A stretch of 64,000 nt of DNA. Origin: Bacteroidaceae bacterium (GTDB taxonomy: Bacteria > Bacteroidota > Bacteroidia > Bacteroidales > UBA932). The stretch covers positions 4,054-68,053 of the forward strand of contig CAVIGZ010000004.1 of the NCBI GenBank assembly GCA_963642565.1. Direction: 5' to 3'. The first letter of the stretch is position 1; each line of letters begins with the position of its first letter. Made by a program: the position numbers and the translations under genes. Shown in pieces: positions 4,395 to 56,777 of the stretch. The notes below the pieces were generated by a model. That model was not told the origin of the DNA and did no database searches. It saw only the letters and a program-made list of their open reading frames with translations.

Positions 4395-5174
4395 CTACTC
4401 AGCGAACTTCGCCTTGAGGAACTCGCGGTTGAGACGGGCGATGTGGTCGATGGAGATTCCCTTCGGGCACTCCATCTCGCAGGCACGTGTGTTCGTGCAG
4501 CTTCCGAAACCAAGCTCCTCCATCTTCGCAACCATATTCCTTGCCCTTCTTGCGGCCTCAGGACGACCCTGAGGAAGCAGAGCGAGTGAACTTACCCTTG
4601 CGGCCACGAACAACATCGCAGAGCCGTTCTTGCACGTTGCCACGCAAGCGCCGCAACCAACGCACGCGGCTGCGTCCATGCTCTTCTCCGCATTGTCGTG
4701 AGAGATGAGAATATTGTTGGCATCCTGAGCGGAACCTGTTCTGACAGAGATGAATCCTCCAGCCTGAAGAATCTTGTCGAACGCACTGCGGTCAACAACC
4801 AGATCCTTGATAATAGGAAAACCGGCACTTCTGAAAGGCTCCACAGTGATGGTGGCGCCATCCTTGAAATGACGCATGAAAAGCTGGCAGGTCGTGACGT
4901 GATCGTCCGGTCCGTGCGCGCGGCCGTCGATGAACAACGAGCAGGCACCGCAGATGCCCTCGCGGCAGTCATGGTCGAAAGAAACAGGACCGCTGCTCTG
5001 GCAGCCTCTGTCAACGGCTACTGGATCGTTACCCTCACGGATCAGCTGCTCATTAAGGATGTCAAGCATTTCGAGGAAAGAGGCGTCCTCCTCTATTCCG
5101 GAAATATGATAAGTCTCAAAATGACCTTGTTCCCCGGCGTTCTTCTGACGCCATATCTTAAGATTGAAATCCAT
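4395..5174 (-). CDS. sdhB: Succinate dehydrogenase/fumarate reductase iron-sulfur subunit
   Basis: [14 protein letters not shown] [2Fe-2S] motif, [11 protein letters not shown] and [12 protein letters not shown] ferredoxin motifs. Confidence 0.95.
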
Positions 5175-5182
5175 AGCCGATT

Positions 5183-7129
5183 CTAGTCTTTATAATTTCT
5201 TGTTTTAACTTCGATGAACTCGTACTTGAGAGGCTCCTTGTGAAGCTCAGGCTCCTGGCCTTCTCCCTTGTACTCCCAGGCGGCGACATACATGTATTTC
5301 GCGTCGTCTCTCTTGGCCTCCCCTTCCTCGGTCTGGCTCTCCACACGGAAGTGACCGCCGCAGGACTCCTTTCTGTTCAAGGCGTCACGGGCCATAAGCT
5401 CGCCGATCTCGAAGAAGTCCTCAAGCCTGAGGGCTTTCTCAAGCTCCTGGTTGAACTGATTCTGCTCTCCCGGAACGCAGACATCTTTGTAGAACACAGC
5501 CTTGAGGTCATTGATTTCATGAATGGCCTTCTTCAAACCTTCCTCATCGCGGGCCATGCCCACATACTCCCACATGATGTTGCCCAGCTTCTTGTGGATG
5601 GAATCGACAGTCTGCTTACCCTTGATGGAGAAGAGCCTGTCGATTCTGGCCTGAACATCCTTCTCGGCCTTGTCGAAGGCAGGATCGTTGATGTCGGTCT
5701 TTGGCTCGGCGAACTTGTGCGAAAGGTAGTCGGCGATAGTGATAGGCAGCACGAAGTAACCGTCAGCAAGACCCTGCATGAGGGCTGAAGCTCCGAGACG
5801 GTTTCCGCCGTGGTCTGAGAAGTTGGCCTCACCGATGGCATAGAGTCCCGGGATGGTGGTCTGAAGATCGTAGTCAACCCAGATGCCTCCCATCGTGTAG
5901 TGGATGGCAGGATAGATCATCATAGGCTCCTCCCAAGGGCTTACGTTATTGATCTTGAAGTACATGTCGAAGAGGTTGCCGTAACGCTCCTGCACTCTCT
6001 GGTGACCGAGACGCTTGATGGCCTCCGAGAAGTCAAGGAACACGGCGAGACCTGTCTCGTTGACTCCGTAACCGGCGTCGCATCTCTCTTTGGCGGCTCT
6101 CGAAGCCACGTCACGAGGCACGAGGTTGCCGAAGGCAGGGTAACGGCGCTCAAGATAGTAGTCACGATCCTCCTCTGGAATCTGTGAAGGCTTGATCTCG
6201 TGTTTGCGGAGCTTCATCACATCCTCCATCTTCTTAGGAACCCAGATACGTCCGTCGTTACGCAGGGACTCTGACATGAGGGTCAGCTTGCACTGCTGGT
6301 CTCCGTGTACCGGGATGCATGTAGGGTGGATCTGCGCGAAGCAAGGATTGGCGAAATACGCTCCCTTCTTGTAGCACTGCCATGCGGCCGAACCGTTGCT
6401 GTTCATGGCGTTGGTTGAAAGGAAGTAGGTGTTGCCGTAGCCGCCTGTGGCGATCACGACAGCGTGCGCTCCGAATCTCTCAAGCTTGCCGGTCACAAGG
6501 TTACGGGCGATGATGCCCTTCGCCTGTCCGTCGATGATGACAAGGTCAAGCATCTCGTGACGAGGATAGCTTGTCACCGTTCCGGCGGCGATCTGGCGGT
6601 TCAAAGCCGCATAGGCGCCCAGAAGGAGCTGCTGTCCGGTTTGTCCGCGGGCATAGAAAGTACGGCTTACCTGAACACCTCCGAAAGAGCGGTTGGCAAG
6701 GTAGCCGCCGTACTCGCGGGCGAAAGGAACTCCCTGCGCCACACACTGGTCGATAATTGCTGCGCTCACCTCGGCGAGACGATAGACATTGGCCTCGCGG
6801 CTGCGGTAGTCGCCACCCTTGATCGTGTCGTAGAAAAGACGATAGACGGCGTCGTTGTCATTCTGATAGTTCTTTGCGGCGTTGATTCCACCCTGAGCGG
6901 CTATCGAGTGCGCGCGGCGAGGGGAATCACTGATGCAGAAAACCTTGACATTGTAGCCAAGCTCACCGAGAGTGGCGGCTGCGGAAGCGCCGCCAAGTCC
7001 GGTACCGACAACGATGATTTCAAGCTTTCTTCTGTTGTTCGGATTGACGAGTCGGAGTTCCGACTTACGTCTGGTCCATTTCTCGGCCAAAGGACCGTCA
7101 GGAATCTTTGAGATTAATTTATCGGCCAT
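5183..7129 (-). CDS. sdhA: Succinate dehydrogenase/fumarate reductase flavoprotein subunit
   Basis: [13 protein letters not shown] motif, [13 protein letters not shown] (covalent FAD His), [22 protein letters not shown]. Confidence 0.96.
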
Positions 7130-22667: not shown

Positions 22668-22679
22668 ATGATGTAGATT

Positions 22680-24608: not shown

Positions 24609-24645
24609 TGGTTAAATCTTACAGAACAAATAATTAGCATCAAAC

Positions 24646-27729: not shown

Positions 27730-27748
27730 TGGATTCATAAAGTAAATC

Positions 27749-29488: not shown

Positions 29489-29527
29489 TGTGGAACTCTT
29501 GATTTGAATTGATAAAAATTGATGAAT

Positions 29528-31123: not shown

Positions 31124-31152
31124 TCAAAGTTCCTTTAAACATTTATTTACAG

Positions 31153-33084
31153 ATGATAAAAAAGACAAGCTTTTCATCTATAATGATTTTCGTGGTTATG
31201 TCCTGTGCGCTTTCAGCACAGGACATAACTGTCGAAAATCCGCCGGTTGATCTCTGTCAGGACACTTGGGTGGCCACTGACGCCTTGGGCAGGACAATGC
31301 CGGGCATTGATGCCGCGGGTCCTGTAAAGACCGACCAGCGCCGTGTCGTGGGAATCTTCTACATCACATGGCACACGCAGAACCTCGCGACCCTTCCGGC
31401 ACCTTATGAAGCGGATGTGACGAAAGTTCTCAAGACCGATCCGAACGCCCGTCTTCAGGCCGACAATCCGAACTGGAAATATGGCTCCTACCACTGGGGA
31501 GAGCCTGAGATGGGCTATTTCCTCAGCCAGGACGAATGGGTGATCCGCAAGGACATGTCGATGCTCTCCGACGCCGGGGTGGACGTGCTGGTGATGGACG
31601 TCACCAACGCCGTACGCTACTGGGACGAGTGGGAGGTGCTGTTCTCCACGATGGAGAAGATGCGCGCAGAAGGCAACAGCACGCCGCAGTTCTGTTTCTG
31701 GGCGTTCAACGGGGAAGTGATCACCGTCGTCCAGCAGCTCTACGAGCGGATCTACAAAGAGAACAAGTACCCTGATCTTTGGTTCTACTGGGACGGAAAG
31801 CCTCTGCTGCTGTACAACGCCGACCCTGTCCATGATGCCAACGGAGGCCATTCCGCCTACAGGGACGGCACTCACGACTACTCCGATGAGGTGAAGAGTT
31901 TCTTCACTCTCAGGAACATGTGGTGGGGCTACTACGAGTGGGCCGGGAAGCGTTTCATCGGCACGGAGGACAACTGGAGTTTCGGCTACAGCATGGCTGA
32001 TCCTAAGATCAAGTCCATGACTCCGGAGGAACTGGTTTCAAAGCACAACGGCAAGGTCGAGGAGGCGGCTGTCACGCCTGCCCAGCATCCGGTCACTATG
32101 ACCAGGGAGCCGATGGGAGTCGGAAAATCCTGGTCGAGACGCTACGGCGAGCCGAAGCTCAATGAATATGATCTCCCGGATTCTGCCTATGTCCCTTGGC
32201 TCGGACGCAAGGTCTCCGATCCGGAGGGCTACGGAATCTACTTCCAGGAGCGTTGGGACGACGCTCTGGCCGCGAACCCTCAGTTCCTTTACCTCAACGA
32301 CTGGAACGAGTGGACGGCCGGAAAGTACAACGGCGAGGTCGGCTGGCTCGGCAGGAAGAATCCGTTCATGTTCGTGGACCAGTACAACTCCGAGTTCAAC
32401 CGGACGATCCAGCCGATGAAAGGCGGCTACACCGACAACTACTACATGCAGATGGCCCAGAACATCCGCCGCTACAAGGGAGTGAGGCCGGTTCCGGTGA
32501 ACAGGCATATTCATAAAATGTCGGTTGACGGAATATTCGGTGATTGGGAGCAGGTTGAGGTGGTCTATCGCGACACCCGCGGGGATGTGTTCCATCGCGA
32601 CGCAAAGGGTTACGGCGGGCTTCACTACACCGATGACACCGGAAGGAACGACATTGTGGCTTCGAAGGTGGCCGTCGGCAAGTCTGAGATATTCTTTTAC
32701 GCCGAGACCGCGGATGACTTGACTCCGTGCACCGATCCTGACTGGATGCTGCTGTTGATTGACTCCGACGGAGACTCATCGACAGGTTGGTACGGCTACG
32801 ACATCCTGATCAACAAGGACGTGACCTCGCCTGGCGAAGGGAATGTCCTGAAGTTCATTGACGGAAAATGGACCGTGGCCGGAAAGTACCGTTTCGCCGT
32901 GGACGGCAACAAACTGGAACTGGCCGTTCCGAAGTCGCTGCTGGGCGTTTCCGGGAAGTCGATCACCTTTGACTTCAAGTGGGCGGACAACACCGGGGAA
33001 CTCATTGACCCGATTTCTTTGTGCCTCCACGGAGACACCGCCCCGAACCGCAGGTTCAACTACAGATTCGTCTGGAACAAATAA
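31153..33084 (+). CDS. Putative glycoside hydrolase, GH99/GH71-like TIM barrel (paralog A)
   Basis: Signal peptide, FYITWH, HWGEPEMGYF, DAGVDVL, DGKPLL, NDWNEW. Located in the PUL. Confidence 0.65.
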   Translation: MIKKTSFSSIMIFVVMSCALSAQDITVENPPVDLCQDTWVATDALGRTMPGIDAAGPVKTDQRRVVGIFYITWHTQNLATLPAPYEADVTKVLKTDPNARLQADNPNWKYGSYHWGEPEMGYFLSQDEWVIRKDMSMLSDAGVDVLVMDVTNAVRYWDEWEVLFSTMEKMRAEGNSTPQFCFWAFNGEVITVVQQLYERIYKENKYPDLWFYWDGKPLLLYNADPVHDANGGHSAYRDGTHDYSDEVKSFFTLRNMWWGYYEWAGKRFIGTEDNWSFGYSMADPKIKSMTPEELVSKHNGKVEEAAVTPAQHPVTMTREPMGVGKSWSRRYGEPKLNEYDLPDSAYVPWLGRKVSDPEGYGIYFQERWDDALAANPQFLYLNDWNEWTAGKYNGEVGWLGRKNPFMFVDQYNSEFNRTIQPMKGGYTDNYYMQMAQNIRRYKGVRPVPVNRHIHKMSVDGIFGDWEQVEVVYRDTRGDVFHRDAKGYGGLHYTDDTGRNDIVASKVAVGKSEIFFYAETADDLTPCTDPDWMLLLIDSDGDSSTGWYGYDILINKDVTSPGEGNVLKFIDGKWTVAGKYRFAVDGNKLELAVPKSLLGVSGKSITFDFKWADNTGELIDPISLCLHGDTAPNRRFNYRFVWNK

Positions 33085-33094
33085 TATTTGTGCT

Positions 33095-35824
33095 GTGAGA
33101 AGAGTTCTTACCTCTTTGCTGGTGCTTGCGGCCCTGTGCGCCCAGGCCAAGCCTACGGTCAATCCCGTCTGTCTGACCTGCAACGAAATGGTCAACCCTG
33201 TCGCTGTCAGTGACGTGCGCTTCAGTTGGAAGCTCGATTCGGATGTAAAGGCTGCCCGCCAGACAGCCTACGAACTCTGGATCGGAACGCTGCCGCAATG
33301 TGGCGGCGACGTGTGGAAGTCCGGGAAAATCATCTCGGAAGACCAGCTGGACATCACACCTCCTTCGGATGTCATCCTCAAGGAAGGGGAGAGGTACTTC
33401 TGGAAGGTCAGGGTCTGGGACGGATCTGACAAGGTCTCCGCATGGACTGCTCCGGCCAGTTTCCGAAAGTCGATAGACAACTCATGGAAAGCTGACTGGA
33501 TTGCCACGGGAAAGATGGAGGACGGCCCGTTCCCGTATTTCCGCAAGACCTTTTCGGTCGGCAAGGGCAAGGTCCGCTCGGCTGTCATCTACCTTTGCGG
33601 TCTGGGCTGCTCTCAGCTTTTCTTCAATGGCATGGTTGTCGAGCCTGACAGGGTTCTCGATCCCGCCCAGACCGACTACGACAAGAAAGCTCTCTACAGC
33701 GCGTTTGATGTTACCGGCCTTCTTGTGAACGGCAAGAACTGCATAGGAGTCATGCTGGGAGCCGGATGGTACGATCAGGATAAGGTCTGGGGAGGAGGAA
33801 TGACCTACGGCAAGCCTATGCTCCGTTGTCAGATGCGCATTGAATATTCTTCCGGCGCAGTGGAGACCGTCGGTACGGACACATCCTGGAAATGGGCCGA
33901 CGGTCCGCTTGTAAGATCGAATGTCTATCAAGGGGATGAATATGATGCCAGACGAGAGATGGACGGATGGTGTTCAGCGGCGTTCGATGACAGTTCATGG
34001 AACGCCGCCGTGATGGCTCAAGGTGTCATCCCGAAGCGGATGGCCGCTCAGGAGATTCCTCCGATGGTGGCCGGGAAGCCTCAGGAGGCCTCATCCATGT
34101 GGCGGTCTTCCAAGAAGGGGAACGTCTGGATTTATGACTTCGGAACCAACCTAACCTCGGAAGTCGTGTTCAGCGCGTCTCTTCCGCGCGGAGTCAGGCT
34201 CCAGACCATCGGATCGGAGGAGATCGACCCTGTCACCCGCGAGATTGACGTGGAGTCCACCGGAGTGGAACATGTCGGATTACAGAAGGATGCCTACACT
34301 TTCGCAGGAAAAGGGAAGGAGACATGGATGCCGGTCTTCACCTACCACGGAATGAGGTATGTGGAGCTGACCGTCGAAGGCTCTGACGAAGAGCCGGGGC
34401 TGGACTGGATCACACGCGCCCCTGTACACACCGACTTGGTCACAATCGGGTCGTTCGAATGCTCGGACCATCAGATCAACTACCTGCATGACATCGCTGC
34501 GAGGACATTCATCAATGCGTTTGTCGGGCTTCCTGTGGACTGCAACCAAAGGGAGAAGTGCGGATGGCTCGGAGACACTCACGCCTACGACAGGGCCGCC
34601 GACATGCTCTTCCAGATGAACAGCTTCTGGGTCAAGTACCTTGATGACATCAGGACCACTTCGGATGTAAGTCTCACAAACACCCTCTTCCACAAGCTTT
34701 ATAACCATAGGTTCTACTACGCTGACAAGGAGGCGGGGATTCCGTTCATGATAGCCCCAGGAAAGCGTCTCTGCGGAGTGGCTTCTCCTGACTGGGGGAC
34801 GGCCGTCGTGCAGCTTCCCTGGCATCTTTACCTGTACTGTGGCAACAGGGGAATTCTCGAGAACTACTACGACATGATGAGTCTTTGGGTCCGCCACATA
34901 GCGGACACTGCGGTTGACGGGATTGTCTACGAGGGTCTCGGCGACTGGTGTCCGACATTCAGCAGCCATGAGCACAACGCCACGGCCGTCGAGTTCTCAT
35001 CCTCGGCATTCCATCTTCTGGACCTCGGAATAATGGTCAGGACGGCAAGGCTGCTTGGCAGGGAAGATGACCTCGGGTGGTTCGAAAAGCAGGAGGAATA
35101 TGTCCGCAAGGCCATCACCGCCAAGTTCTTCAACCCTCTCAAGTGTTCCTTCGGAGGCCAGACAGCGGACGCGATGGCTCTTGAACTCGGACTCTTTCCT
35201 CAAGACCGCCGTCAGGAAGGCGCACAGGCCATCCTGAATGACATAAACACCGGCCACAAGTTCTTCGATGTGGGAGTCTTCGGACTTTCAAGGATAGGAA
35301 GCGCACTGGCAAGGAACGGGGCTTCGGCGGAAGCGTTCGCCCTCTTCACGAAGAAAGGAGAGAACACGTTCGGTGTGATGGTCGATTCCTTGAAGGTGAC
35401 CACCCTGTGGGAGACTCTGCCTTTGCAGAGCGACACCCGGGCGAAGTCTCACGGCTCTCACTGCCATCCTATGCAAGGAGGCTATGAGTCCTGGATTCTT
35501 GAGGATGTCGCCGGACTGAGGCCTGTGGAGGATGCTCCGGGATTCAAGACAGTCCTGTTCCATCCTTGGCACACTTCCGACCTTGAATGGGCGGCCGCTA
35601 CGGTTGACACCCGTTACGGAACGACCTCCACTTCATGGAAGAACGAGGGCGGAAGGCTTGTCTGGGACATCGTCATCCCGGCCGGCGCCGACGGGCTGGT
35701 GTACATTCCTGAAGGAAAGAAGGCAACGGTTGACGGTAAGGCTGTCGTGTTTGACAGGAAAAATCACGAAGGCTATGAATGCTACGTCTTCCCTTCCGGC
35801 TCTTATCACATTGTGGCTGAATAG
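33095..35824 (+). CDS. GH78 alpha-L-rhamnosidase-family protein
   Basis: GTG start with signal peptide, YFWKVRVWD, PYFRKTF, YDFGTN, FTYHGMRY, DCNQREKCGWLGD, TTLWE, SHCHPMQG. Confidence 0.88.
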   Translation: MRRVLTSLLVLAALCAQAKPTVNPVCLTCNEMVNPVAVSDVRFSWKLDSDVKAARQTAYELWIGTLPQCGGDVWKSGKIISEDQLDITPPSDVILKEGERYFWKVRVWDGSDKVSAWTAPASFRKSIDNSWKADWIATGKMEDGPFPYFRKTFSVGKGKVRSAVIYLCGLGCSQLFFNGMVVEPDRVLDPAQTDYDKKALYSAFDVTGLLVNGKNCIGVMLGAGWYDQDKVWGGGMTYGKPMLRCQMRIEYSSGAVETVGTDTSWKWADGPLVRSNVYQGDEYDARREMDGWCSAAFDDSSWNAAVMAQGVIPKRMAAQEIPPMVAGKPQEASSMWRSSKKGNVWIYDFGTNLTSEVVFSASLPRGVRLQTIGSEEIDPVTREIDVESTGVEHVGLQKDAYTFAGKGKETWMPVFTYHGMRYVELTVEGSDEEPGLDWITRAPVHTDLVTIGSFECSDHQINYLHDIAARTFINAFVGLPVDCNQREKCGWLGDTHAYDRAADMLFQMNSFWVKYLDDIRTTSDVSLTNTLFHKLYNHRFYYADKEAGIPFMIAPGKRLCGVASPDWGTAVVQLPWHLYLYCGNRGILENYYDMMSLWVRHIADTAVDGIVYEGLGDWCPTFSSHEHNATAVEFSSSAFHLLDLGIMVRTARLLGREDDLGWFEKQEEYVRKAITAKFFNPLKCSFGGQTADAMALELGLFPQDRRQEGAQAILNDINTGHKFFDVGVFGLSRIGSALARNGASAEAFALFTKKGENTFGVMVDSLKVTTLWETLPLQSDTRAKSHGSHCHPMQGGYESWILEDVAGLRPVEDAPGFKTVLFHPWHTSDLEWAAATVDTRYGTTSTSWKNEGGRLVWDIVIPAGADGLVYIPEGKKATVDGKAVVFDRKNHEGYECYVFPSGSYHIVAE

Positions 35825-35875
35825 CTCCACCAGGAGCTGGCCGTTAAGTTTAAAAACATTGGAAATCATTTGACT

Positions 35876-37687
35876 ATGAAAAGAATTTTTCTCGCTTTCT
35901 CGCTTTTGTCCCTGGTGATGACCCCATCGTTCTCCCAGGAGGTGAACAGCGACTCCTGGGCGGCCACAGACGCCCTTGGCCGCAAGGTAAGGTCTTATGC
36001 CGACGCTCCGGCCAAACGTGACGGAAAGGTTGTAGCGATGTTCTACTGGACATGGCATCAGGGCAACGACGACACGACTTACCGTGTCAAGAACATCTCC
36101 GGAATAATCCGTCAGCAACCTGAGGCCCTGAAGGACTACAACCATCCGGCATGGGGCAGCAAGAAGCCCGGCTTCTTCTTTTGGGAAGAGCCTTTGTTCG
36201 GCTACTACAAGACCACCGACAAGTGGGTTCTCCGCAAGCAGGCGGAGCTTCTGGCGGACGCCGGAGTTGACGCTGTCTTCTTTGACTGCACCAACGGCTC
36301 CCTGACCTGGAAGGAATCCTACGAGGCTCTTCTGGAAACCTGGGACAAGGCGCGGAAAGACGGAGTGAACGTGCCGAAGATAGCGTTCATGCTCAATTTC
36401 GGTCCGTTGCCTACGTCGCGTGTCTCACTCCGTCAGCTCTACAATGACCTTTACAAGCCGGGCAGGTACTCCGACCTGTGGTTTGTCTGGAAAGGCAAGC
36501 CTTGCATAATGGCTTATCCGGAGGCTCTTGACGACTCCCCTCTGGACCGTGAGATCGCCGGGTTCTTCACTTTCCGTCCGGGGCAGCCGGACTACGTTGA
36601 CGGACCGTCCAGGAACGACCAGTGGGGATGGCTTGAGAACTACCCTCAGCACGGCTATGTCGCTTCGGAAGGAGCTGACGGAAAGGTTTCCTATGAGCAG
36701 GTCACGGTAGGTGTCTCCCAGAACACAAGCCCTGACCGTAAAGGTCATTGCGGAGCCTTCAATGTCAAGGATTCGCAGGGCAGGAGTTTCTCGGTCAGAA
36801 ACGGTTTCGACCCGCGTCCTGACGGCTATCTTTACGGCTGGAACTTCGCTGAGCAGTGGGACAGGGCTGACGAGCTTGACCCTGAGCTGGTCTTCGTGAC
36901 GGGATGGAATGAGTACATCGCCGGAATCTGGCTTCCGGAGCATGGCTGGCAGGGAGACCCGTTCTCGTTTGTGGATCAGTTCGACTGGGACCACAGCCGG
37001 GACATCGAGCCTAACAAAGGCTGGGGTGACAAGGGTGATGTCTATTACCTTCAGCTGGTTGACAGGGTGCGCAAGTTCAAGGGAATGGCTCCGTCGGAAC
37101 CCGCCAGCGGCGAGAAGACCATCGACATGAAGAATGTCGGGGACTGGGATGATGTCAGACCGTATTTCCGAAGCTACAAGGGCAACACCATGCACCGCGA
37201 AGCCCGCGGACGTTATGACTGCTTCTATGTGAACACAACAGGCAGGAACGACATAACCGGAGCCAAGGTGGCCCGTGACTCAGAGAACCTTTGGTTCTAT
37301 GTGGAGACGGCCGGGAAGCTGTCTCCGCAGTCCGGCCCGCACTGGATGCAGCTGCTTATCGACGTGGACCGGGACAAGTCGACCGGCTGGAACGGCTATG
37401 ACTTCATCATCAACCGCGTCGGTCCGGAAGGGCGCAAAGCCGTTCTGGAGAGGAATATTCAAGGAATATGGATGTGGGAGGAATCGGCCGGATGCGAGTT
37501 CCGAACCTATGGCGACAGACTTGTGATAAAGATTCCCCGCAAGGCTTTGGGGCTTTCTTCAGATTCTCTTGACTTCGAGTTCAAATGGAACGACAACATG
37601 CAGGAGGAAGGGAACATCATGGACTTCTATGTCAACGGTGATTCCGCTCCCGGCGGACGTTTCAACTACGTCTATACCGCCAGGTAG
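35876..37687 (+). CDS. Putative glycoside hydrolase, GH99/GH71-like TIM barrel (paralog B)
   Basis: Signal peptide, FYWTWH, FWEEPLFGYY, DAGVDAV, TGWNEY. Colinear similarity to 31153-33084. Confidence 0.65.
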   Translation: MKRIFLAFSLLSLVMTPSFSQEVNSDSWAATDALGRKVRSYADAPAKRDGKVVAMFYWTWHQGNDDTTYRVKNISGIIRQQPEALKDYNHPAWGSKKPGFFFWEEPLFGYYKTTDKWVLRKQAELLADAGVDAVFFDCTNGSLTWKESYEALLETWDKARKDGVNVPKIAFMLNFGPLPTSRVSLRQLYNDLYKPGRYSDLWFVWKGKPCIMAYPEALDDSPLDREIAGFFTFRPGQPDYVDGPSRNDQWGWLENYPQHGYVASEGADGKVSYEQVTVGVSQNTSPDRKGHCGAFNVKDSQGRSFSVRNGFDPRPDGYLYGWNFAEQWDRADELDPELVFVTGWNEYIAGIWLPEHGWQGDPFSFVDQFDWDHSRDIEPNKGWGDKGDVYYLQLVDRVRKFKGMAPSEPASGEKTIDMKNVGDWDDVRPYFRSYKGNTMHREARGRYDCFYVNTTGRNDITGAKVARDSENLWFYVETAGKLSPQSGPHWMQLLIDVDRDKSTGWNGYDFIINRVGPEGRKAVLERNIQGIWMWEESAGCEFRTYGDRLVIKIPRKALGLSSDSLDFEFKWNDNMQEEGNIMDFYVNGDSAPGGRFNYVYTAR

Positions 37688-37799
37688 GAAGTCTTGGTCT
37701 GTTTGAGAATTTGAAGAGAAGGAGTTTTTCAGATAAGAAACATGAAAAAGATGATGCAGGTTATTTTTTGAAGGTTTCTAAATGTTAAGAATAACGGAC

Positions 37800-39440
37800 A
37801 TGAAAATCAATTCATCGTTGCGGCTGATCATCGCCGCGCTCTCATTGACTATTCTTTGCTCATGCGGAAAGGACGCTCCTGGGCCTAACGTTGTCGTAAA
37901 GCCGAAGAGTACCAAGGAACAGATGGCCGCCAACCTGAAGGAATACCTTGCCAAGGACTATTCCTCCAAAGTGGCAAGTGTGGAGGTGACTTCCGACAAA
38001 GTGATTGTCAAGGGTTCCTGCGGAGGGTCCGGGAAGTACGTCCTTGCCGAGATCACTCCTTGGCAGGATGTTACCGAGCTGAAAGAGTACCCTTACACCG
38101 AGAGTGTCTCGGACAAGAATTTTTCGGTCACGGTGGACAGGATTGTCCCGTCACGCGAGGGGATAAGGTACGACAGGGTTTTCTCAAAATGGGCGGTCGT
38201 CAAGGTGGACGGAGACGGACAGACGTTGGATTCCCACGCCCGTTATGCTGACGAGGTGGCTCCGAAGGCCAGTCCGGCCGCTGTCCCGCTCAGGAACAAG
38301 AAAGGTTTCGGGGCCGGAGATCACGACTATTATTTCAGCGACTGCAAGGAGATGAATGTCGGCAGCATCACCATGAATGTGGTTCTCAACAACTACATCA
38401 CGGGAAAGGGTTCAGGCTATTCCTATGGCGGAATCAACTACAGCCTTGGCCCCGTGAAGGAATATGTTGACTATGTGACCGCCAAGGCCGCGGAAAACAG
38501 CCTTGTGGTCTCGGCCATCATTCTCTGTCAGGTCAACTCCATATTCAATGATCCGGAGAACACGGGAGGCAACTACACGATGCCGAATATGACGACCGCC
38601 GAGTCTTTCAACCTCTATGCCGCCGCGCTTGAGCACATGGCCTCCACCCACTGCACCGCGGACAGGAGAATTTCCCACTGGATCATGCACAACGAGGTTG
38701 ACTTTGCGGACGAGTGGACCAACATGGGCACTCAACCGATGCTGCGCTACCTTGACAGGTATGTCAAGTCCATGAGAATCTGCTACAACATCGCGCGGCA
38801 GTACGACCAGAACGCCTCTGTTCTTGGTTCTTTCACACATTGCTGGACAAAGTCCGACGGAGCCTATGCGCCGAAGACATTGCTGAACAAGATTGTTGAA
38901 TATTCCAACGTGGAGGGAGACTTCCGCTGGGGTGTGGCGTACCACCCTTACCCACAGGATCTCACGAAGCCGACATTCTGGAACGACGACACTCAGGCTA
39001 CCTTCTCGATGGACACCAAGTACGTGACTTTCAAGAATCTGGAGGTTATCGACGCTTGGATCAAGCTCAAGGAGAACCTTTACAAAGGGACGGAGAAACG
39101 TCAGCTGTTCCTCTCCGAGCAAGGCACCAACTCGCCTACCTATTCGGAATCTGACCTTGCGCTTCAGGCCGCGGGCGGCGCCTGGGTTTGGAAAAAGGTT
39201 TCCAAATTGGACGGAATTGACGCTGTACAATGGCACAACTGGGCCGACAACAAGGCCGAGGGAGGTCTCAGGATCGGCCTCCGTACCTTCGATGAGGGCA
39301 GTGTCCAGAACCTGACCCCAAAGCCTGTCTGGTACGTCTGGAAAGCAGCCGGCACTCCTGAGGAAGACTCCGTCTTCGATCAGTACAAGACCACCATCGG
39401 CATCACCGACTGGGACTCCATCATGGGAGAGGTAAAATAG
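37800..39440 (+). CDS. DUF5722-type lipoprotein, putative clan GH-A-like glycoside hydrolase
   Basis: Lipobox LCSC, HWIMHNEVD, AYHPYP, LSEQG, PKPVWYVWK. Confidence 0.65.
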   Translation: MKINSSLRLIIAALSLTILCSCGKDAPGPNVVVKPKSTKEQMAANLKEYLAKDYSSKVASVEVTSDKVIVKGSCGGSGKYVLAEITPWQDVTELKEYPYTESVSDKNFSVTVDRIVPSREGIRYDRVFSKWAVVKVDGDGQTLDSHARYADEVAPKASPAAVPLRNKKGFGAGDHDYYFSDCKEMNVGSITMNVVLNNYITGKGSGYSYGGINYSLGPVKEYVDYVTAKAAENSLVVSAIILCQVNSIFNDPENTGGNYTMPNMTTAESFNLYAAALEHMASTHCTADRRISHWIMHNEVDFADEWTNMGTQPMLRYLDRYVKSMRICYNIARQYDQNASVLGSFTHCWTKSDGAYAPKTLLNKIVEYSNVEGDFRWGVAYHPYPQDLTKPTFWNDDTQATFSMDTKYVTFKNLEVIDAWIKLKENLYKGTEKRQLFLSEQGTNSPTYSESDLALQAAGGAWVWKKVSKLDGIDAVQWHNWADNKAEGGLRIGLRTFDEGSVQNLTPKPVWYVWKAAGTPEEDSVFDQYKTTIGITDWDSIMGEVK

Positions 39441-51139: not shown

Positions 51140-52669
51140 ATGGGAGGCGGAAAAAAAGTGATGATGTTCGCCGGCCTTGGCGGGCTGGCGGTCGGAGTGT
51201 GTGCCATGCTGGCGGTGGGCGGTGCGATGACCCGCACTTCCACCAACGAGTATTGCATGAGCTGCCACTACCATGAACAGGCGGATGCCGACTGGAAGAA
51301 ATCCGAGCACTACAACAGCAGGAGCGGAGTGGTGACCGACTGTGCGGCGTGTCATCTTCCGCCGAAGGAGAACGGCTACCTCCGCTACTACATGGTCAAG
51401 GCCAGGATGGGGGCGAAGGATCTCTGGGCCAAGATGACGAAGGACAAGGACGAGATCGACTGGAGTTCAAGAAGGACGCTTGAGCGCGGCTCGGAAATCG
51501 TTTACAACGAGTCCTGCGAGAAATGCCATGTCAATCTTTATCCTTCGGGGATCTCCGATGACGGCATCACGGCCCATCTCTACTACGACGAAAATTCAAA
51601 GAAACTGGATCTCCAGTGCATCAGCTGCCATCTGAACACCGGCCACGACATGCCCGGCTACGAGCATAAGAGATTGGAAGGCAAGGTGATGGACACGGGT
51701 GGCGGAGAGAAGTACGACAGCGCCGCCGTGGTGATCTCATTCTCCAACTTCACGGAGACTGTTCCGGGGACGACGGCAGCCATAAGCATGATCGCCGTTC
51801 CTGGAGGCGAGTTCACGCTCGGAAGTCCGGACAGCGAGCCGTTCCGTTCGGAGGACGAGGGCCCGCAGAGGAAGGTCCGGATCTCACCGTTCTTCATGGG
51901 CGAGGTCGAGGTGACATGGCATCAGTTCTGGGCTTTCTACAACGAGACGATGTCCGAGGGCAGAACCCCTCCGGAGAAAATCTATGCCAACAACAACCGT
52001 CCTGACGTGGATGCGGTCAGCGGGCCTACCCCGCCGTTCGGATTCCCGGACCAGGGCTGGGGAATGGGTGAAAGGCCGGCGATCACGATGACACACTACG
52101 CCGCCGAGACGTTCTGTCAGTGGCTTTCCCTCAAAACGGGGCGCAGCTACCGTCTCCCGACCGAGGCCGAATGGGAATATGCGGCCCGTGGCGGCACCCG
52201 GACTCCGTACTTCTTCGAGGGCAACCCGAAGAAATACTCGAAAGAGACATTCTGGAACAGACTTTTCGGAGCGGACACGACCTCTATCGCAAGTTATGTG
52301 GTCTATGCGGAGGACAGTTTCGGCAAGACGCAGGAGCCTTCCGAGGTGAAGGCCAATCCGTTCGGACTCAAGAATATGCTGGGCAACGTGATGGAATATT
52401 GCTCCGACCGTTATGCCGCGGACGCATATTCAAAGATCGCTGACGGCGCTTTGGATCCGAAAGGTCCGGAGAGCGGCGACGAGTTCGTGGTCCGCGGAGG
52501 AGCCTATTCGGATGATGCCTCCCTTGTCCGCTGCGCCGCCAGAAACCACACCCGTAATGATGACTGGCTCCGCACAGATCCGCAGAACCCGAAGAGCATC
52601 TGGTGGTATTCTGACATCAAGGGGATCGGTTTCAGGGTCGTGTGCGACGTGCCGGAAGGAATTCTATAA
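51140..52669 (+). CDS. NapC/NirT-type tetraheme cytochrome c fused to an FGE/SUMF1-like domain
   Basis: N-terminal TM, four CxxCH motifs (CMSCH, CAACH, CEKCH, CISCH…GH). Then FTLGS…DEGPQR…EVT, RLPTEAEWEYAARGG, NPFGL..MLGNV.E, RGGAY, IGFRVV. Confidence 0.88.
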   Translation: MGGGKKVMMFAGLGGLAVGVCAMLAVGGAMTRTSTNEYCMSCHYHEQADADWKKSEHYNSRSGVVTDCAACHLPPKENGYLRYYMVKARMGAKDLWAKMTKDKDEIDWSSRRTLERGSEIVYNESCEKCHVNLYPSGISDDGITAHLYYDENSKKLDLQCISCHLNTGHDMPGYEHKRLEGKVMDTGGGEKYDSAAVVISFSNFTETVPGTTAAISMIAVPGGEFTLGSPDSEPFRSEDEGPQRKVRISPFFMGEVEVTWHQFWAFYNETMSEGRTPPEKIYANNNRPDVDAVSGPTPPFGFPDQGWGMGERPAITMTHYAAETFCQWLSLKTGRSYRLPTEAEWEYAARGGTRTPYFFEGNPKKYSKETFWNRLFGADTTSIASYVVYAEDSFGKTQEPSEVKANPFGLKNMLGNVMEYCSDRYAADAYSKIADGALDPKGPESGDEFVVRGGAYSDDASLVRCAARNHTRNDDWLRTDPQNPKSIWWYSDIKGIGFRVVCDVPEGIL

Positions 52670-52713
52670 AGTTATAAAGTTAAAACATTAATAACATAAA
52701 GACTATTGATAAA

Positions 52714-54069
52714 ATGAACAACAAAATGGACAGAAGATCCTTTCTTGGCAAGAGCGCCAGGATAGGTGTAGGTCTGGTAGGCGGCAGCGTTTTGCTGTCC
52801 GCCTGCGCTGGCGGTGACAAATCCGGCAAATTGATTCCCCTCAGGCAGCCGGGCGAGTATTATGTTCCGGAACTTCCGGACAAGGCCATTGACGGTAAGG
52901 AACTCAAGGTCGGCGTGATCGGCTGCGGCGGACGCGGAAGCGGTGCCGTTGAGGATCTGCTGAACGCCGCCGACGGAATCAAGGTGACGGCTCTCGGCGA
53001 TGTGTTCGCCGACCGGCTGAACAGCCTCCGCGACAGCCTAAAGAACAACAGGAATCAGGAGGTTCCGGAGGATCACTGCTTTGTCGGCTTCGATGCTTAC
53101 AAGCAGGTCATCGATTCCGGGGTTGACATGGTCATCGTGGCCACTCCGCCTGTCTTCAGGCCGACACATTTCCAGTACGCCACCGAAAAGGGAGTCCATT
53201 CGTTCCTTGAGAAGCCTATCGCGGTGGACGCCAAAGGCTACCGTCAGATCATGGCCACGGCGAAACAGGCCGAGGCCAAGGGTCTTTGCGTGGTGACCGG
53301 AACGCAGCGTCATCATCAGAGGCCTTATGTGGAGTCCTTCAAGAAGATTCAGGAAGGCATGATCGGCGAGATCACCGGCGGCAATGTTTACTGGAACCAG
53401 GGCATGCTCTGGTACAGGGAGCGTCAGCAGGGCTGGAGCGACATGGAATGGATGATCCGCGACTGGGTCAACTGGAAGTGGCTTTCCGGCGACCACATCG
53501 TCGAGCAGCACGTGCACAACATCGACGTGTTCAACTGGATGATCGGAGGGCATCCGATCAAGGCGACCGGTTTCGGAAGCCGTCAGCGCCGCGTCACCGG
53601 AGACCAGTACGACAACTTCAGCATCGACTTCGAGTACGAGAACGGAGTCCATCTGCACAGCATGTCGCGTCAGATCGACGGTTGCTCCAACAACATCAGT
53701 GAATATGTCCGCGGAACCAAAGGCTACTGGAGTTCTGTGGATTTCGCCATCCGTGACCTTCAGGGGAATGTCCTTTGGCAGTTCGACGCCGAGGCCGAGA
53801 AGGCTCAGTACCAGCAGACCAATCCGTATGTGCTTGAGCATGTCGATTGGGTGAACCACATCCGTAAGGGTGAGACTCATGTGGAGGCCGGAGATTGCGG
53901 CGTGTCATCTCTTTGCGGAGTGATGGGCCGTGAGGCGGCCTACACCGGCCAGACCATAACCTGGGACGAGATCAGCGCCTCCGACCTGGACTACCTCCCG
54001 GAGAAGCTGGAACTCGGCAAGATGGACATGAGCAAGTATGTCGTACCGGTTCCGGGTTCCGGAAAGTAA
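52714..54069 (+). CDS. Tat-exported Gfo/Idh/MocA NAD(P)-dependent oxidoreductase (probable lipoprotein)
   Basis: DRRSFL Tat motif, LSAC lipobox, VGVIGCGGRGSG, ATPP, EKP, GTQRH, EQHVHNID. Confidence 0.9.
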   Translation: MNNKMDRRSFLGKSARIGVGLVGGSVLLSACAGGDKSGKLIPLRQPGEYYVPELPDKAIDGKELKVGVIGCGGRGSGAVEDLLNAADGIKVTALGDVFADRLNSLRDSLKNNRNQEVPEDHCFVGFDAYKQVIDSGVDMVIVATPPVFRPTHFQYATEKGVHSFLEKPIAVDAKGYRQIMATAKQAEAKGLCVVTGTQRHHQRPYVESFKKIQEGMIGEITGGNVYWNQGMLWYRERQQGWSDMEWMIRDWVNWKWLSGDHIVEQHVHNIDVFNWMIGGHPIKATGFGSRQRRVTGDQYDNFSIDFEYENGVHLHSMSRQIDGCSNNISEYVRGTKGYWSSVDFAIRDLQGNVLWQFDAEAEKAQYQQTNPYVLEHVDWVNHIRKGETHVEAGDCGVSSLCGVMGREAAYTGQTITWDEISASDLDYLPEKLELGKMDMSKYVVPVPGSGK

Positions 54070-54097
54070 CCGGTCGCTGAGCCTGTCGAAGTGCCGG
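54070..54097. repeat. REP-like palindrome CCGGTCGCTGAGCCTGTCGAAG…
   Basis: 22 nt identical to the reverse complement of 4351-4372. Confidence 0.8.
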
Positions 54098-54133
54098 AGA
54101 TACGGAATGTCATAAACAATAAAGCGAGAATTT

Positions 54134-55045
54134 ATGGACAGAAGAAGTTTTTTGACAACTGCGGCGGCCGGGTCGGCGGCTTTGGCCGCCGCCTCGGTGC
54201 TGCCGGGATGCGTTGCCGTCAAGGACGATAGGAAAAAGGCCGGGAAGGACCTTGAGCTGAATCTTTCCTTTCAGGAGGGGACGGCTCCCGGCGAGACTCT
54301 GGCTGAAAGGCTGGACTTCATGGAGAGTCTCGGAATCACCGGTTTCGAGCCGGGTGGACACGGGCTGGCTTCCCGTGTGAAGGAGATTCAGGATGCCCTC
54401 AGCGGACGGAACATCAAGGTGTCGGCGATCTGCGCCGGTTTCGACGGCTTCATCCTTGCCGAGGATCCTGCGGTCAAGGAACTGTTCGACAAGACCATGC
54501 GCGGGATCGTGGCCGCCGCCGGAGAACTCGGATCGACCGGAGTCATCATGGTTCCGGCGTTCAACCATCAGACTCCGTGCAGGCCTCACACGATTGACAC
54601 CCGCAAGTTCCTTTGCGAGCAGCTCCACGACCTCGGAGAGTTCGCCCTTGAACACGGCACGACCGTGATCCTTGAGCCGTTGAACAGGAACGAGGCATTC
54701 TACCTCCGTCAGGTGGCCGACGCCGCTGCGATTGCCCGTGACTCGGACAGCGAGGGAGTCAAGGCTATGGGCGACTTCTGGCACATGTCCGAGGAGACTT
54801 CCGACTACGGCGCCCTGATGTCGGCCGGCAAGGAGTACCTTCAGCACGTCCACATCGCCAGCCGCGGACGCCGCATCATGCCGGGCGAGGACGGAGAGAA
54901 GGACAACTACGTTGACGGATTCAGAGCCCTCAAGGAGATTGGTTACGACAAGTATGTCAGCTTCGAGTGCGGTACGAAGGGCGACCGCGCCACGACCGTC
55001 ACCGCAGCCGTTGATCTCCTGCGCAAGCAGTGGGTCCAGGCGTAA
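54134..55045 (+). CDS. Tat-exported xylose-isomerase-like TIM-barrel sugar isomerase/epimerase/dehydratase
   Basis: DRRSFL Tat motif, metal ligands in LEPLNRNE, GDFWHM, HVHIAS, SFEC. Confidence 0.88.
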   Translation: MDRRSFLTTAAAGSAALAAASVLPGCVAVKDDRKKAGKDLELNLSFQEGTAPGETLAERLDFMESLGITGFEPGGHGLASRVKEIQDALSGRNIKVSAICAGFDGFILAEDPAVKELFDKTMRGIVAAAGELGSTGVIMVPAFNHQTPCRPHTIDTRKFLCEQLHDLGEFALEHGTTVILEPLNRNEAFYLRQVADAAAIARDSDSEGVKAMGDFWHMSEETSDYGALMSAGKEYLQHVHIASRGRRIMPGEDGEKDNYVDGFRALKEIGYDKYVSFECGTKGDRATTVTAAVDLLRKQWVQA

Positions 55046-55887
55046 TGTCTGCCTTGGACTATCCGTTCGGGCTTTCCGCGGCCTTGGTCCATGTCTGCCT
55101 TCTGGTGGTCATCTATGTGTCGCGTGAGCGATGTCCGTTGTACAGACATCTGGCCGGACGGAAAGCCTGCACAATCTCGATTTCAATCGTACTGTCTCTG
55201 CTTCTCATCTTCGGGCTCACACCGCAGGATGGGAGCGGAGACGGTTTTTTAGGCGTTCTTGGTTTTCGGAACATGAGCCGTTCGCCGGTTTTCATCCTCG
55301 CGTTGTTTCTTTTAGCGACGACCGTCACGCTGAACACGATCGAGGATATTCATAAATTCACAAGGCATCGCTTTGGAGTGACCTGTGCCCACCTGGCACT
55401 GTCGGTGATTCTCATCGCCGGGCTGTTCGGCAGCGGCGGAACCGTCCGGGCGAGAATGGAGGCGAATCCGGGCATTCCCGTTCACTATGGGCTGGACGAG
55501 CGGAGCGGCGAATCCCGTAAGCTGCCTTTCGAACTGACCCTCAGACGCTTTGTGATTGATGAATATGCCTCCGAAGCCTCTTTGGTTCTGCCGGACGGCC
55601 GCTCTTCCGAGGTCAGAATCGCTGTCAACCATCCGGTCCGGGTCGGAGAGTGGTGGATCTACCAGACGGATTATGTGATGGACACCGGGCGCGGGGAGTT
55701 CACAAGCATATTCAAATGTGTCCATTCCCCGTTGTCCGAGGTTTTCCGCATCGCCTTGTGGCTGCTGCTCGTCTGCGCCGCTGCGATGGTGTTCTTTTCC
55801 GGTTTCAAGCCTCACTTCGGAAAGAGGGCCATCTCTTCCGGACAAGATTCTTCCGAGGAGATGTTCAATGGAAAGGAGGTTCGGTGA
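55045..55887 (+). CDS. Cytochrome c biogenesis protein ResB/CcsB-like (system II)
   Basis: TM helices, conserved His in CAHLAL, LPFELTLRRF, IAVNHP…WIYQ. TAATG coupling with the upstream gene. Confidence 0.75.
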   Translation: MSALDYPFGLSAALVHVCLLVVIYVSRERCPLYRHLAGRKACTISISIVLSLLLIFGLTPQDGSGDGFLGVLGFRNMSRSPVFILALFLLATTVTLNTIEDIHKFTRHRFGVTCAHLALSVILIAGLFGSGGTVRARMEANPGIPVHYGLDERSGESRKLPFELTLRRFVIDEYASEASLVLPDGRSSEVRIAVNHPVRVGEWWIYQTDYVMDTGRGEFTSIFKCVHSPLSEVFRIALWLLLVCAAAMVFFSGFKPHFGKRAISSGQDSSEEMFNGKEVR

Positions 55888-56777
55888 TGGGTTGGGATTC
55901 ATTCGTCTGGTTCGCCTCGACCGCATCCGCGCTGTGGATTTGCGGAGCGGTTGCCTCTGTCAGGTCGGAGCGGCGTCTGCCTGCGGTTCTGCTGACCGGC
56001 TGCGGATCTGCCGTATTCCTTGCATTCATTGCCGGAGTGTGGATCTCGCTCGGCCGTCCGCCGCTCCGCACGATGGGGGAGACCCGCCTCTGGTTCAGCC
56101 TCTTCCTCTCTCTGATCGGTCTCGGGGTCTATTTCCGTTGGCGCTACCGCTGGGTGCTGCCGTTCGGCTGCCTGATGGCCGTGATGTTCGCGAGCATCAA
56201 CGTGTTCAAGCCGGAGATCCACACCGAGGAACTTATGCCGGCCCTTCGCAGTCCGTGGTTCGTTCCGCACGTCATCGTCTACATGTTCGCCTATGCAGTG
56301 ATGGGCATCGCCACCATCCTCGCCGTCCGCCTCCTCCGGCTTCTCCGCCATCCGGTCACGAAGCCGGAGCCTTCGGCCACTGAGCCAGTCGGAGTGACCG
56401 ACCTCCGCCTCTGCGACACCCTTGTCCGCATCGGCTGGGGTTTCCTCACGATGGGCATAGTGATGGGGGCCCTCTGGGCCAAGCAGGCCTGGGGTGACTA
56501 CTGGACCTGGGATCCCAAGGAGACCTGGGCCGCCGCCACCTGGCTGAGTTACCTGCTTTATCTTCATCTGCGCCAAGGTCAAGGCCATAACCATAGTCAA
56601 GGTCCGGGCTCTTTTATGTCTTCGGTCACTGAGCTGGCCGAAGTGACATCACACTCCCACAGATCCGTCCGCCGCGCTCTCCTCCTCCTGCTCTTCTCGT
56701 TCATTCTCCTCCAGATGTGCTGGTGGGGCGTCAACTGCCTTCCCTCCGCCCAAGGCTTCAGCCTTCACACTTATTGA
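55887..56777 (+). CDS. ccsA: Cytochrome c biogenesis protein CcsA (system II heme lyase)
   Basis: RPPLRTMGET, MPALRSPWFVPHV, WAKQAWGDYWTWDPKETW (WWD domain), YLH, C-terminal SLHTY. TGATG coupling. Confidence 0.93.
   Translation: MGWDSFVWFASTASALWICGAVASVRSERRLPAVLLTGCGSAVFLAFIAGVWISLGRPPLRTMGETRLWFSLFLSLIGLGVYFRWRYRWVLPFGCLMAVMFASINVFKPEIHTEELMPALRSPWFVPHVIVYMFAYAVMGIATILAVRLLRLLRHPVTKPEPSATEPVGVTDLRLCDTLVRIGWGFLTMGIVMGALWAKQAWGDYWTWDPKETWAAATWLSYLLYLHLRQGQGHNHSQGPGSFMSSVTELAEVTSHSHRSVRRALLLLLFSFILLQMCWWGVNCLPSAQGFSLHTY

Follow-up and report, generated by a model that had tools for sequence, protein, structure and literature searches.

A tetrahaem cytochrome fused to an FGE-fold domain and a Tat-exported Gfo/Idh/MocA dehydrogenase form a widespread, undescribed module in Bacteroidota and a candidate periplasmic sugar:quinone oxidoreductase

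We analysed a 64,000-nucleotide stretch (the window) from the genome of a Bacteroidaceae bacterium (GenBank assembly GCA_963642565.1, contig CAVIGZ010000004.1; genome 1.98 Mb, 96.6% complete), in which five genes, here called A to E, form a compact operon on the forward strand. Gene A (51140-52669, 509 aa) encodes a NapC/NrfH-type tetrahaem domain fused to a domain with the fold of formylglycine-generating enzyme (FGE). Gene B (52714-54069, 451 aa) encodes a Gfo/Idh/MocA dehydrogenase with a twin-arginine translocation (Tat) signal, and gene C (54134-55045, 303 aa) an AP_endonuc_2 TIM barrel of the epimerase/isomerase type, also with a Tat signal. Genes D (55045-55887, 280 aa) and E (55887-56777, 296 aa) encode a short ResB/CcsB protein for system II haem attachment and a CcsA-type haem lyase subunit with a Cytochrom_C_asm domain. 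The coordinates of the open reading frames (ORFs) bear out the layout given in a preliminary description of this DNA: all five genes run in one direction, with 44 bases between A and B and 64 between B and C, and C, D and E are joined by overlaps (TAATG at 55043-55047 and TGATG at 55885-55889). The operon is not a chance assembly, as a species-genome collection holds 497 stretches encoding relatives of gene A, the nearest of them labelled Cryptobacteroides, Alistipes or Bacteroidales and coming from human and ruminant guts. None of the five proteins reaches an NCBIfam equivalog cut-off.

Protein A consists of an N-terminal membrane helix, a tetrahaem domain at residues ~7-176, a linker and an FGE-fold domain at ~200-505, and its AlphaFold model has a mean predicted local distance difference test (pLDDT) score of 85.5. 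Pfam matches Cytochrom_NNT to residues 7-172 (E 3.5e-27) and FGE-sulfatase to residues 216-470 (E 1.6e-38; 133 bits, cut-off 23). The helix, the Cytochrom_NNT match and four CxxCH haem sites (residues 39, 68, 126 and 160; 51254..51631, + strand) confirm the membrane-anchored cytochrome of the preliminary description, and the helix together with c-type haems would place the protein in the periplasm. A CxxCHxM motif at haem 1 is a feature of the NapC/NirT/NrfH family; A lacks it, with His45 standing where NrfH has Met49. All four CxxCH sites and four further histidines (45, 57, 146 and 169) are invariant in 54/54 fused homologues. Asp89 of NrfH has a role at the quinol site. When A is aligned to NrfH (PDB 2j7a), Lys87 and Asp94 fall on NrfH Lys82 and Asp89, and these residues of the NrfH-type quinol site are retained in 54/54 and 53/54 fused homologues, respectively. 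NrfH Lys82 and CymA Lys91 bind quinol, menaquinol has a potential of -74 mV, and characterised NapC/NrfH proteins mostly oxidise quinol (PMC2762525). NCBIfam scores of A fall under every cut-off, including those for NrfH (61 of 134 bits) and TorC (63 of 478). The absence of an NrfA partner, noted previously for the neighbourhood, extends to the 96.6%-complete genome, where NrfA was not found. A nitrite reductase role was rejected on this ground and on the absence of NrfA from 41/41 close relatives; NrfA is encoded elsewhere in the genome in 17/72 fusion genomes.

The closest fold to the FGE-like domain is PvdO (5hha; Foldseek E 5.9e-19, 26% identity). FGE's copper-binding catalytic cysteines are missing: GGAYSDDAS of A aligns to GGSFLCHES, with Asp458 at the first Cys, and position 458 is mostly D or S in 69 aligned sequences. 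A role in sulfatase maturation was rejected because these cysteines are missing. Two elements are absent from ordinary FGE-fold proteins and specific to this subfamily. One is the C-terminal signature D480-PQNPKSIW-W489 (52577..52606, + strand; general form DPQxPKSxWW), in which D480, Q482, P484, S486, W488 and W489 are invariant in 69 sequences; in a 50%-representative search otherwise dominated by FGE-repeat proteins, 11/150 rows carry it. The other is a loop containing D291-A-V-S-G-P-T297 (52010..52030, + strand), a candidate ApbE flavinylation site in a low-confidence and probably mobile region (pLDDT 52-63 across residues 271-300).

The ApbE motif is D-x-x-[S/T]-G-A-[S/T], with flavin mononucleotide (FMN) attached to its last residue, and Gly-to-Ala and Ala-to-Val changes within it each halve flavinylation (PMC12052999). 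DAVSGPT is not an exact match, being one residue off this motif. Among aligned homologues the acceptor place is T or S in 69/69 and the first place D in 68/69. Fused forms mostly read DAISGPT, with the exact canonical motif in 5/38 fused loci, and unfused forms mostly read DAV[T/S]RP[T/S], with the canonical motif in 17/120 hits. The genome's own ApbE-type motifs are DAVSGAT in RnfD, DAISGAT in NqrB and DAITGAT in NqrC; since its RnfG reads DAITAST, the local ApbE presumably tolerates departures from the motif. A relaxed pattern matches 10 of the 1467 genome ORFs, three of which are NqrB, NqrC and RnfD. The preliminary description had supposed that an unseen flavin partner might be needed. The guess of a flavin appears apt, and the missing partner is probably the FGE-like domain of A itself, so that the site would lie within gene A and not in a separate protein.

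Haem fusion has occurred more than once in this subfamily. Besides the NapC type, the same FGE domain is fused to a planctomycete-type cytochrome c (CxxCH-bearing fusions make up ~18/120 hits, most with PF07635), and one such fusion has B downstream; this is a second haem fusion, independent of the first. In a further architecture the FGE subfamily domain follows a long, repeat-like extension at the N-terminus (724 aa), and FGE is the only Pfam match (P0243; L203, L201).

Protein B has a full Gfo active site and fold, with an intact GCGGRG loop, an Asp96 that, by the family rule, we take to specify NAD rather than NADP, an EKP motif and E264/H268/D271; G70, G72, E166, K167, H268 and D271 are kept in 54/54 sequences. 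B and C both begin with an RRSFL Tat motif and the genome encodes TatC, in keeping with their earlier assignment as Tat proteins. B additionally carries a lipobox-like LSA-C31, with both signals present in 45/60 close homologues, and is probably a lipoprotein. The preliminary description had set the Gfo and TIM-barrel pair beside BT2156-BT2159 of B. thetaiotaomicron, but B itself does not belong to the BT2158 family: B scores 23 bits against the BT2158 family NF058561 (cut-off 750) and is 21% identical to the genome's own BT2158-type enzyme, a true family member (813 bits) encoded on contig C61 beside DUF1080, and we rejected B as a BT2158 orthologue. The operon indeed has no DUF1080 gene, as previously remarked, but the genome has four DUF1080 matches elsewhere; among annotated loci DUF1080 lies directly upstream in only two, described below.

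B resembles the solved inositol, NanOx and glycoside dehydrogenases to a similarly low degree, and structure thus gives no answer as to substrate. Protein C has as its closest solved relatives 3kws, a putative sugar isomerase (415 bits), and 6wn6, a 3-keto-D-glucoside 4-epimerase (93 bits). Its best characterised match, although a distant one (E 2.3e-25), is YcjR, a 3-keto-D-glucoside 4-epimerase (PMC11543891). Neighbours at B loci, namely ThuA-domain proteins, LacA/LacC-like proteins, a second Gfo and an IolE-like TIM barrel, belong to families of 3-keto-glycoside pathways as interpreted through PMC9007349, PMC8121099 and bioRxiv 573055. Because C lies nearest YcjR and B keeps such neighbours, the substrate is probably a glycoside or cyclitol that is oxidised to its keto form.

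Comparison across genomes separates the core of the system from its accessories. Our close set comprises 80 loci, 57 of them with 5 kb of downstream sequence; B and C each follow in 57/57 of these, and D and E in 43/57. Of 300 further Bacteroidales genomes in our sample, 35 have the fusion. We compared 38 loci, taken from 31 of these 35 other-family genomes (four were left out because matches were split or near contig ends): B is found in 36/38, this TIM barrel in 13/38 and resB/ccsA in 0/38. The proposed conservation of the cytochrome next to a Gfo gene is thus upheld, and the TIM barrel drops out as part of the unit; where it is absent, another Tat TIM barrel, a second Gfo or a ThuA-domain protein often replaces it. 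In a phylum sample, an unfused FGE domain at ~40% identity occurs in 18 mostly aerobic-type genomes, with B in the locus in 17/18. A sugar-linked respiratory module in an anaerobe, as first described, is therefore too narrow a label, as the unit is not confined to anaerobes.

Profile searches of 301 Bacteroidota genomes detect the B subfamily in 31; strong hits to the FGE subfamily occur in 24 genomes, every one of them among those 31 (three FGE hits with E near 1e-61, in long frames, were counted as generic). Of the seven B genomes left over, six have a shorter FGE member directly beside B, giving 30/31 paired; in the last, no FGE-subfamily member lies within 16 kb of B. A metagenome control of 78 loci finds B near 27/42 subfamily members versus 0/36 other FGE-fold loci (split by score or C-terminal signature; mean flanks 6.4-7.1 kb versus 5.4 kb; five of the 36 resemble truncated or divergent members). 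The FGE-like domain and B are the invariant core of the system, the TIM barrel is exchangeable, and resB/ccsA adjoin the core only in close relatives, so that TIM and maturation genes are accessories.

The flavinylation enzyme shows a related pattern of association. The genome encodes one ApbE, on contig C50. At unfused loci apbE lies 0.6-1.6 kb from the gene in 8/18 cases, with no canonical motif in other ORFs there, and in two genomes that are 100% complete this neighbouring apbE is the sole apbE. ApbE is encoded in 18/18 unfused genomes and 70/72 fusion genomes versus 191/301 genomes of the phylum sample. In the metagenome loci, apbE lies near 11/42 subfamily members versus 0/36 other FGE-fold loci.

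A predicted complex of B with the FGE domain of A reached a score of 0.83, whereas the best of three controls stayed at 0.00; the 0.83 mark is reached by 116/157 solved complexes and 2/215 mismatched pairs. Complex runs agree in at least 7% of contacts, and partner pLDDT is at least 86. The interface sets A residues 297-309 and 478-484 against B residues 73-78 (the glycine loop), 198, 228-236, 322-328 and 370-372. The two subfamily-specific elements of A would thus face the glycine loop and cleft rim of B, with the signature as the second half of the docking surface and T297 predicted to sit at the NAD cleft. Searches of the PDB showed no like complex.

We lean towards a model in which A and B together form a membrane-tethered periplasmic sugar:quinone oxidoreductase. 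Within this model, the FGE-like domain of A likely acts in the electron relay, and we lean only slightly towards the full version with FMN bound covalently to Thr297. B would be exported folded by Tat with bound NAD and would oxidise a sugar or glycoside hydroxyl, probably at C3, to judge from its family and neighbours. The FGE-like domain is predicted to dock on the NAD cleft of B, where FMN, put on Thr297 by the housekeeping ApbE, would take hydride from NADH and release single electrons. The four haems could carry these to menaquinone, which would react at the NrfH-type site, whose residues are seen in A. Menaquinol would then be reoxidised by fumarate reductase, for which the window encodes fumarate reductase/succinate dehydrogenase flavoprotein and iron-sulfur genes (4398..7129, - strand; NF005749 1157 bits and NF005746 401 bits, both above cut-off) outside the operon. 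C would epimerise or rearrange the keto-sugar, and D and E would serve in the maturation of A's haems. Aerobic relatives would use the FGE-Gfo pair unfused, or fused to a mono- or di-haem cytochrome c, often with its own apbE. The net outcome would be sugar oxidation in a compartment without a free NAD pool, and a quinone site on the periplasmic side could make the module electroneutral. NAD has a potential of about -320 mV against -74 mV for menaquinol, so the direction of sugar oxidation runs downhill and the reverse uphill. Of the two directions entertained in the preliminary description, sugar oxidation or keto-sugar reduction coupled to quinone, the kept quinol-site residues fit the coupling, and oxidation is favoured over reduction.

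Several observations weigh against this model or narrow its basis. In the complex prediction, a check suggested in the preliminary description, one of three runs scored 0.00, and the prediction, with its own alignments and riding ligands, lies outside the calibration and reported no FMN or NAD positions. No solved structure shares more than 20% identity with B; the best hits, at 13-20%, are inositol dehydrogenases, YjhC/NanOx and others. Because the profiles drew in part on 18-20 of the same genomes, only 11 newly found genomes are an independent check on pairing, and the pairing counts include related genomes, which as kin are not independent. The doubts gather most closely around covalent FMN. 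Pro replaces the Ala of known substrates in A, the commonest unfused form, Arg-Pro, is two residues off, and the substitutions described in PMC12052999 do not include Pro at this position. Further, 16/120 unfused-type hits have no pattern match, and two members lack a clear motif, one a NapC fusion and the other reading AAVARPS. As apbE is present in 0/118 fused loci and 0/11 fused metagenome loci, the link between A and ApbE rests on homology with the unfused forms. In the two genomes with a sole, neighbouring apbE, searches for the usual FMN targets FMN_bind, NQR2_RnfD_RnfE and DUF2271 found none, which favours the model, but DUF3570, Flavodoxin_4 and FMN_red were not searched. Finally, predicted docking runs through this very motif loop, and a docking role could by itself account for the loop being conserved. 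The same wire might then run without covalent FMN; NADH and haem would be bridged within the FGE fold by a flavin that is not covalently bound, by a metal or by some other cofactor, as with whatever PvdO uses. The nearest fold is indeed PvdO, whose NCBIfam label is dihydropyoverdine dehydrogenase, and the motif departures and bare fused loci suit this alternative. We nonetheless judge it unlikely, since the acceptor T/S is kept in 69/69, exact canonical motifs recur among both fused and unfused forms, and apbE has repeatedly been recruited beside the unfused gene, in two genomes as the only copy.

Other alternatives change the purpose of the wire. Electrons could flow in reverse, with the NapC domain oxidising menaquinol, as NrfH, CymA and TorC do, and B reducing a keto-sugar or other carbonyl as terminal acceptor. 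The mostly quinol-oxidising habit of the family, the kept quinol-site residues and the few acceptors in the genome, where neither NrfA nor cytochrome bd was found, would all agree with this direction, yet it must climb strongly uphill from menaquinol to NAD, and aerobic relatives fuse the FGE-like domain to ordinary cytochrome c domains, which suits oxidation; we regard it as improbable. A maintenance or sensing role, in which B recycles its own NAD and A resets wrongly reduced enzyme or reports redox state, seems to us no more probable than reversal. It draws on the proposal that BT2158 needs no cytochrome and keeps its NAD(P) tightly bound during turnover (PMC8121099) and on the closeness of B to 3-keto-glycoside pathway families. 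A separate BT2158-family pathway without a cytochrome is, however, already present in the genome, the near-obligate pairing of A and B and the retention of a maturation system point to a core role, and a reset would need the same electron wire anyway. Least probable of all, and very much so, is that the FGE-like domain is a lectin-like or scaffold module tethering B to the membrane, with the haem domain working for some partner encoded elsewhere. Proteins with no catalytic function are frequent in the FGE fold (GldK/PorK, repeats), but the genome holds no other multihaem ORF or NrfA client, and both the independent fusion to a second cytochrome type and the apbE linkage of unfused forms oppose a passive role.

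The maturation genes are best read as accessories of the proposed oxidoreductase. D matches positions 150-274 of the 486 in the ResB model, and E carries a WWD-type motif, WGDYWTWDPKETW, and scores 125 bits against TIGR03144, under the cut-off of 188; Pfam ResB (short) and Cytochrom_C_asm matches sustain their naming as ResB/CcsA. They adjoin A-C here, but the arrangement is not invariant, with none in the 38 loci of other families, and a second cytochrome exists. This second c-type cytochrome is a di-haem DHOR lipoprotein with its own fused maturase CcsBA (contig C77, 786-6918). The argument that D and E are dedicated by default, A being the sole cytochrome c, is weakened, as DHOR has its own maturase and resB/ccsA are not adjacent in 14/57 close and 38/38 distant loci. 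The question of other CxxCH clients in the genome is thus answered by DHOR on one side, and on the other by the lack of NrfA and of any ORF besides gene A with at least three CxxCH. A CcsA-type gene occurs somewhere in 71/72 fusion genomes.

Other features of these genes deserve mention. The DHOR operon on C77 also holds outer-membrane porin-like and lipoprotein genes, the latter presumably imelysin-like, and probably serves iron uptake. A PD40 propeller lipoprotein with a single CxxCH (C46:8173-9690) is a possible third haem-c client. In two loci (L041:11865-13154 and L042:11851-13185) ResB and CcsA are fused (452-466 aa), with a double-DUF1080 gene immediately upstream of the cytochrome fusion. 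Insertions in CcsA (gene E) are His-rich and variable in length, and the 3' end of the gene overlaps the end of a convergent U32 peptidase gene by 20 bases (56758-56777). C has a lipobox in only 3/60 close homologues and does not align with the genome's IolE-like TIM barrel.

The operon also varies in its surroundings among genomes. Ten Alistipes-labelled loci have a WbuC-family cupin gene between B and C, most with a second Gfo upstream, and four other loci have an unrelated ~430-440 aa gene there in either orientation, suggesting insertion of a mobile or hot-spot kind. In six loci of rumen relatives a FAD-linked oxidase of ~960 aa with 4Fe-4S and CCG domains lies directly upstream of A. Several genomes have a further copy of the fusion operon (six loci in all), accompanied by an additional Gfo, a ThuA-domain protein, a GT2 glycosyltransferase and a TPR membrane protein. 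Cytochrome bd oxidase genes adjoin the fusion operon in five loci, a possible alternative quinol sink. In the genome studied here, Nqr, Rnf, MenA, MenG and fumarate reductase genes are present; no futalosine pathway gene was found, and early men genes were not searched. The window also contains a polysaccharide utilisation locus (19485-39437) with two SusC/SusD pairs, a DUF4959 lipoprotein, an alpha-L-rhamnosidase and a DUF5722 protein, ~12 kb from the operon and with no sign of linkage to it. A promoter and terminator scan was at chance level (2 found versus 1.9, and 5 versus 5.1).

We conclude that the A-B module is real, widespread and undescribed, and that it would be categorically new if the FGE-fold flavin relay is confirmed. 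A literature search, with most subscription papers outside its reach, found no description of it. A term search found no FGE-fold substrate in the main text of PMC8238504, PMC11334425 and PMC12052999; FGE, NapC and Gfo are unnamed in the main text of two flavinylation surveys, whose large tables lay outside that search, and the searched terms are absent from the supplements of PMC9007349 and PMC8238504. How exported NAD-type sugar dehydrogenases turn over without a free periplasmic NAD pool is a question to which the module offers a direct answer for a second, widespread subfamily. The authors of the BT2158 study proposed an unidentified co-substrate, since cytochrome-c-dependent oxidation seemed precluded in such anaerobes (PMC8121099). 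The model would also assign a role to thousands of proteins that now bear the label formylglycine-generating enzyme or SUMF1/EgtB/PvdO family. The ApbE substrates would gain a new fold as well as motif variants, and the haem-c maturation genes of gut Bacteroidales that have small genomes and no nitrite reductase would be accounted for. Uncultured genomes labelled Cryptobacteroides or Alistipes, from the guts of humans and ruminants, commonly carry the fusion. Whether this FGE-fold family, with hits across Bacteroidota, Verrucomicrobia and Planctomycetes-type sequences, consists of unrecognised ApbE-flavinylated carriers that reoxidise the NAD of Tat-exported Gfo enzymes seems to us evenly balanced. 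If it does, this carrier family would plug into whichever chain its host uses, menaquinone through NapC in anaerobes and cytochrome c in aerobes, and the ApbE motif would widen to Pro and Arg-Pro forms. If true, the model also gives fermentative gut bacteria a periplasmic NADH:quinone route by which sugars would be oxidised ahead of import, with fumarate as the respiratory acceptor of the electrons.

Each part of the module resembles a known system and departs from it. Like NapC, NirT, NrfH, CymA and TorC (PF03264; PDB 2j7a), A has one N-terminal helix, four CxxCH sites and lysine and aspartate residues at the NrfH quinol-site positions, and TorC, as A, has a C-terminal partner-facing domain. 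Unlike them, A has His45 for Met, an FGE-fold domain, an NAD enzyme as partner in place of a nitrite, nitrate or trimethylamine N-oxide reductase, and a predicted flow toward quinone. With PvdO and FGE (PF03781) it shares the fold, PvdO being a periplasmic FGE-fold protein labelled a dehydrogenase; A differs in its absent copper cysteines, its subfamily-specific loop and signature, and a score of 96 of 500 bits for PvdO. LacA, of the glucoside 3-dehydrogenase LacABC, is an FAD enzyme of the GMC family. ApbE-flavinylated proteins (NqrB/C, RnfD/G, FMN_bind, and Flavodoxin_4 and FMN_red insertions) likewise carry a D-x-x-[S/T]-G-x-[S/T] loop, are extracytosolic and co-locate with apbE, and a motif gained as an insertion in a known fold has a precedent in Flavodoxin_4 (PMC11334425); the subfamily of A differs in the Pro or Arg-Pro of its motif and in its FGE fold. 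BT2156-BT2159 likewise pairs a Tat-exported Gfo/Idh/MocA protein with a TIM-barrel neighbour (PMC8121099), whereas that pathway has no cytochrome, B lies outside the BT2158 family and the operon lacks DUF1080. Closest in overall logic is LacABC of Caulobacter, Pedobacter and Echinicola, a membrane-bound system that ties periplasmic glycoside oxidation to cytochrome c (PMC9007349, PMC8121099), and LacA/LacC-like genes lie near some of the unfused loci. In the A-B module, unlike LacABC, the catalyst is an NAD-type Gfo protein, and electrons would be relayed by an FGE fold joined to a quinone-reactive tetrahaem domain, an arrangement that a menaquinone-dependent anaerobe could use. Thus, the A-B module most likely works like LacABC but is built from different parts, and is not a member of that system.

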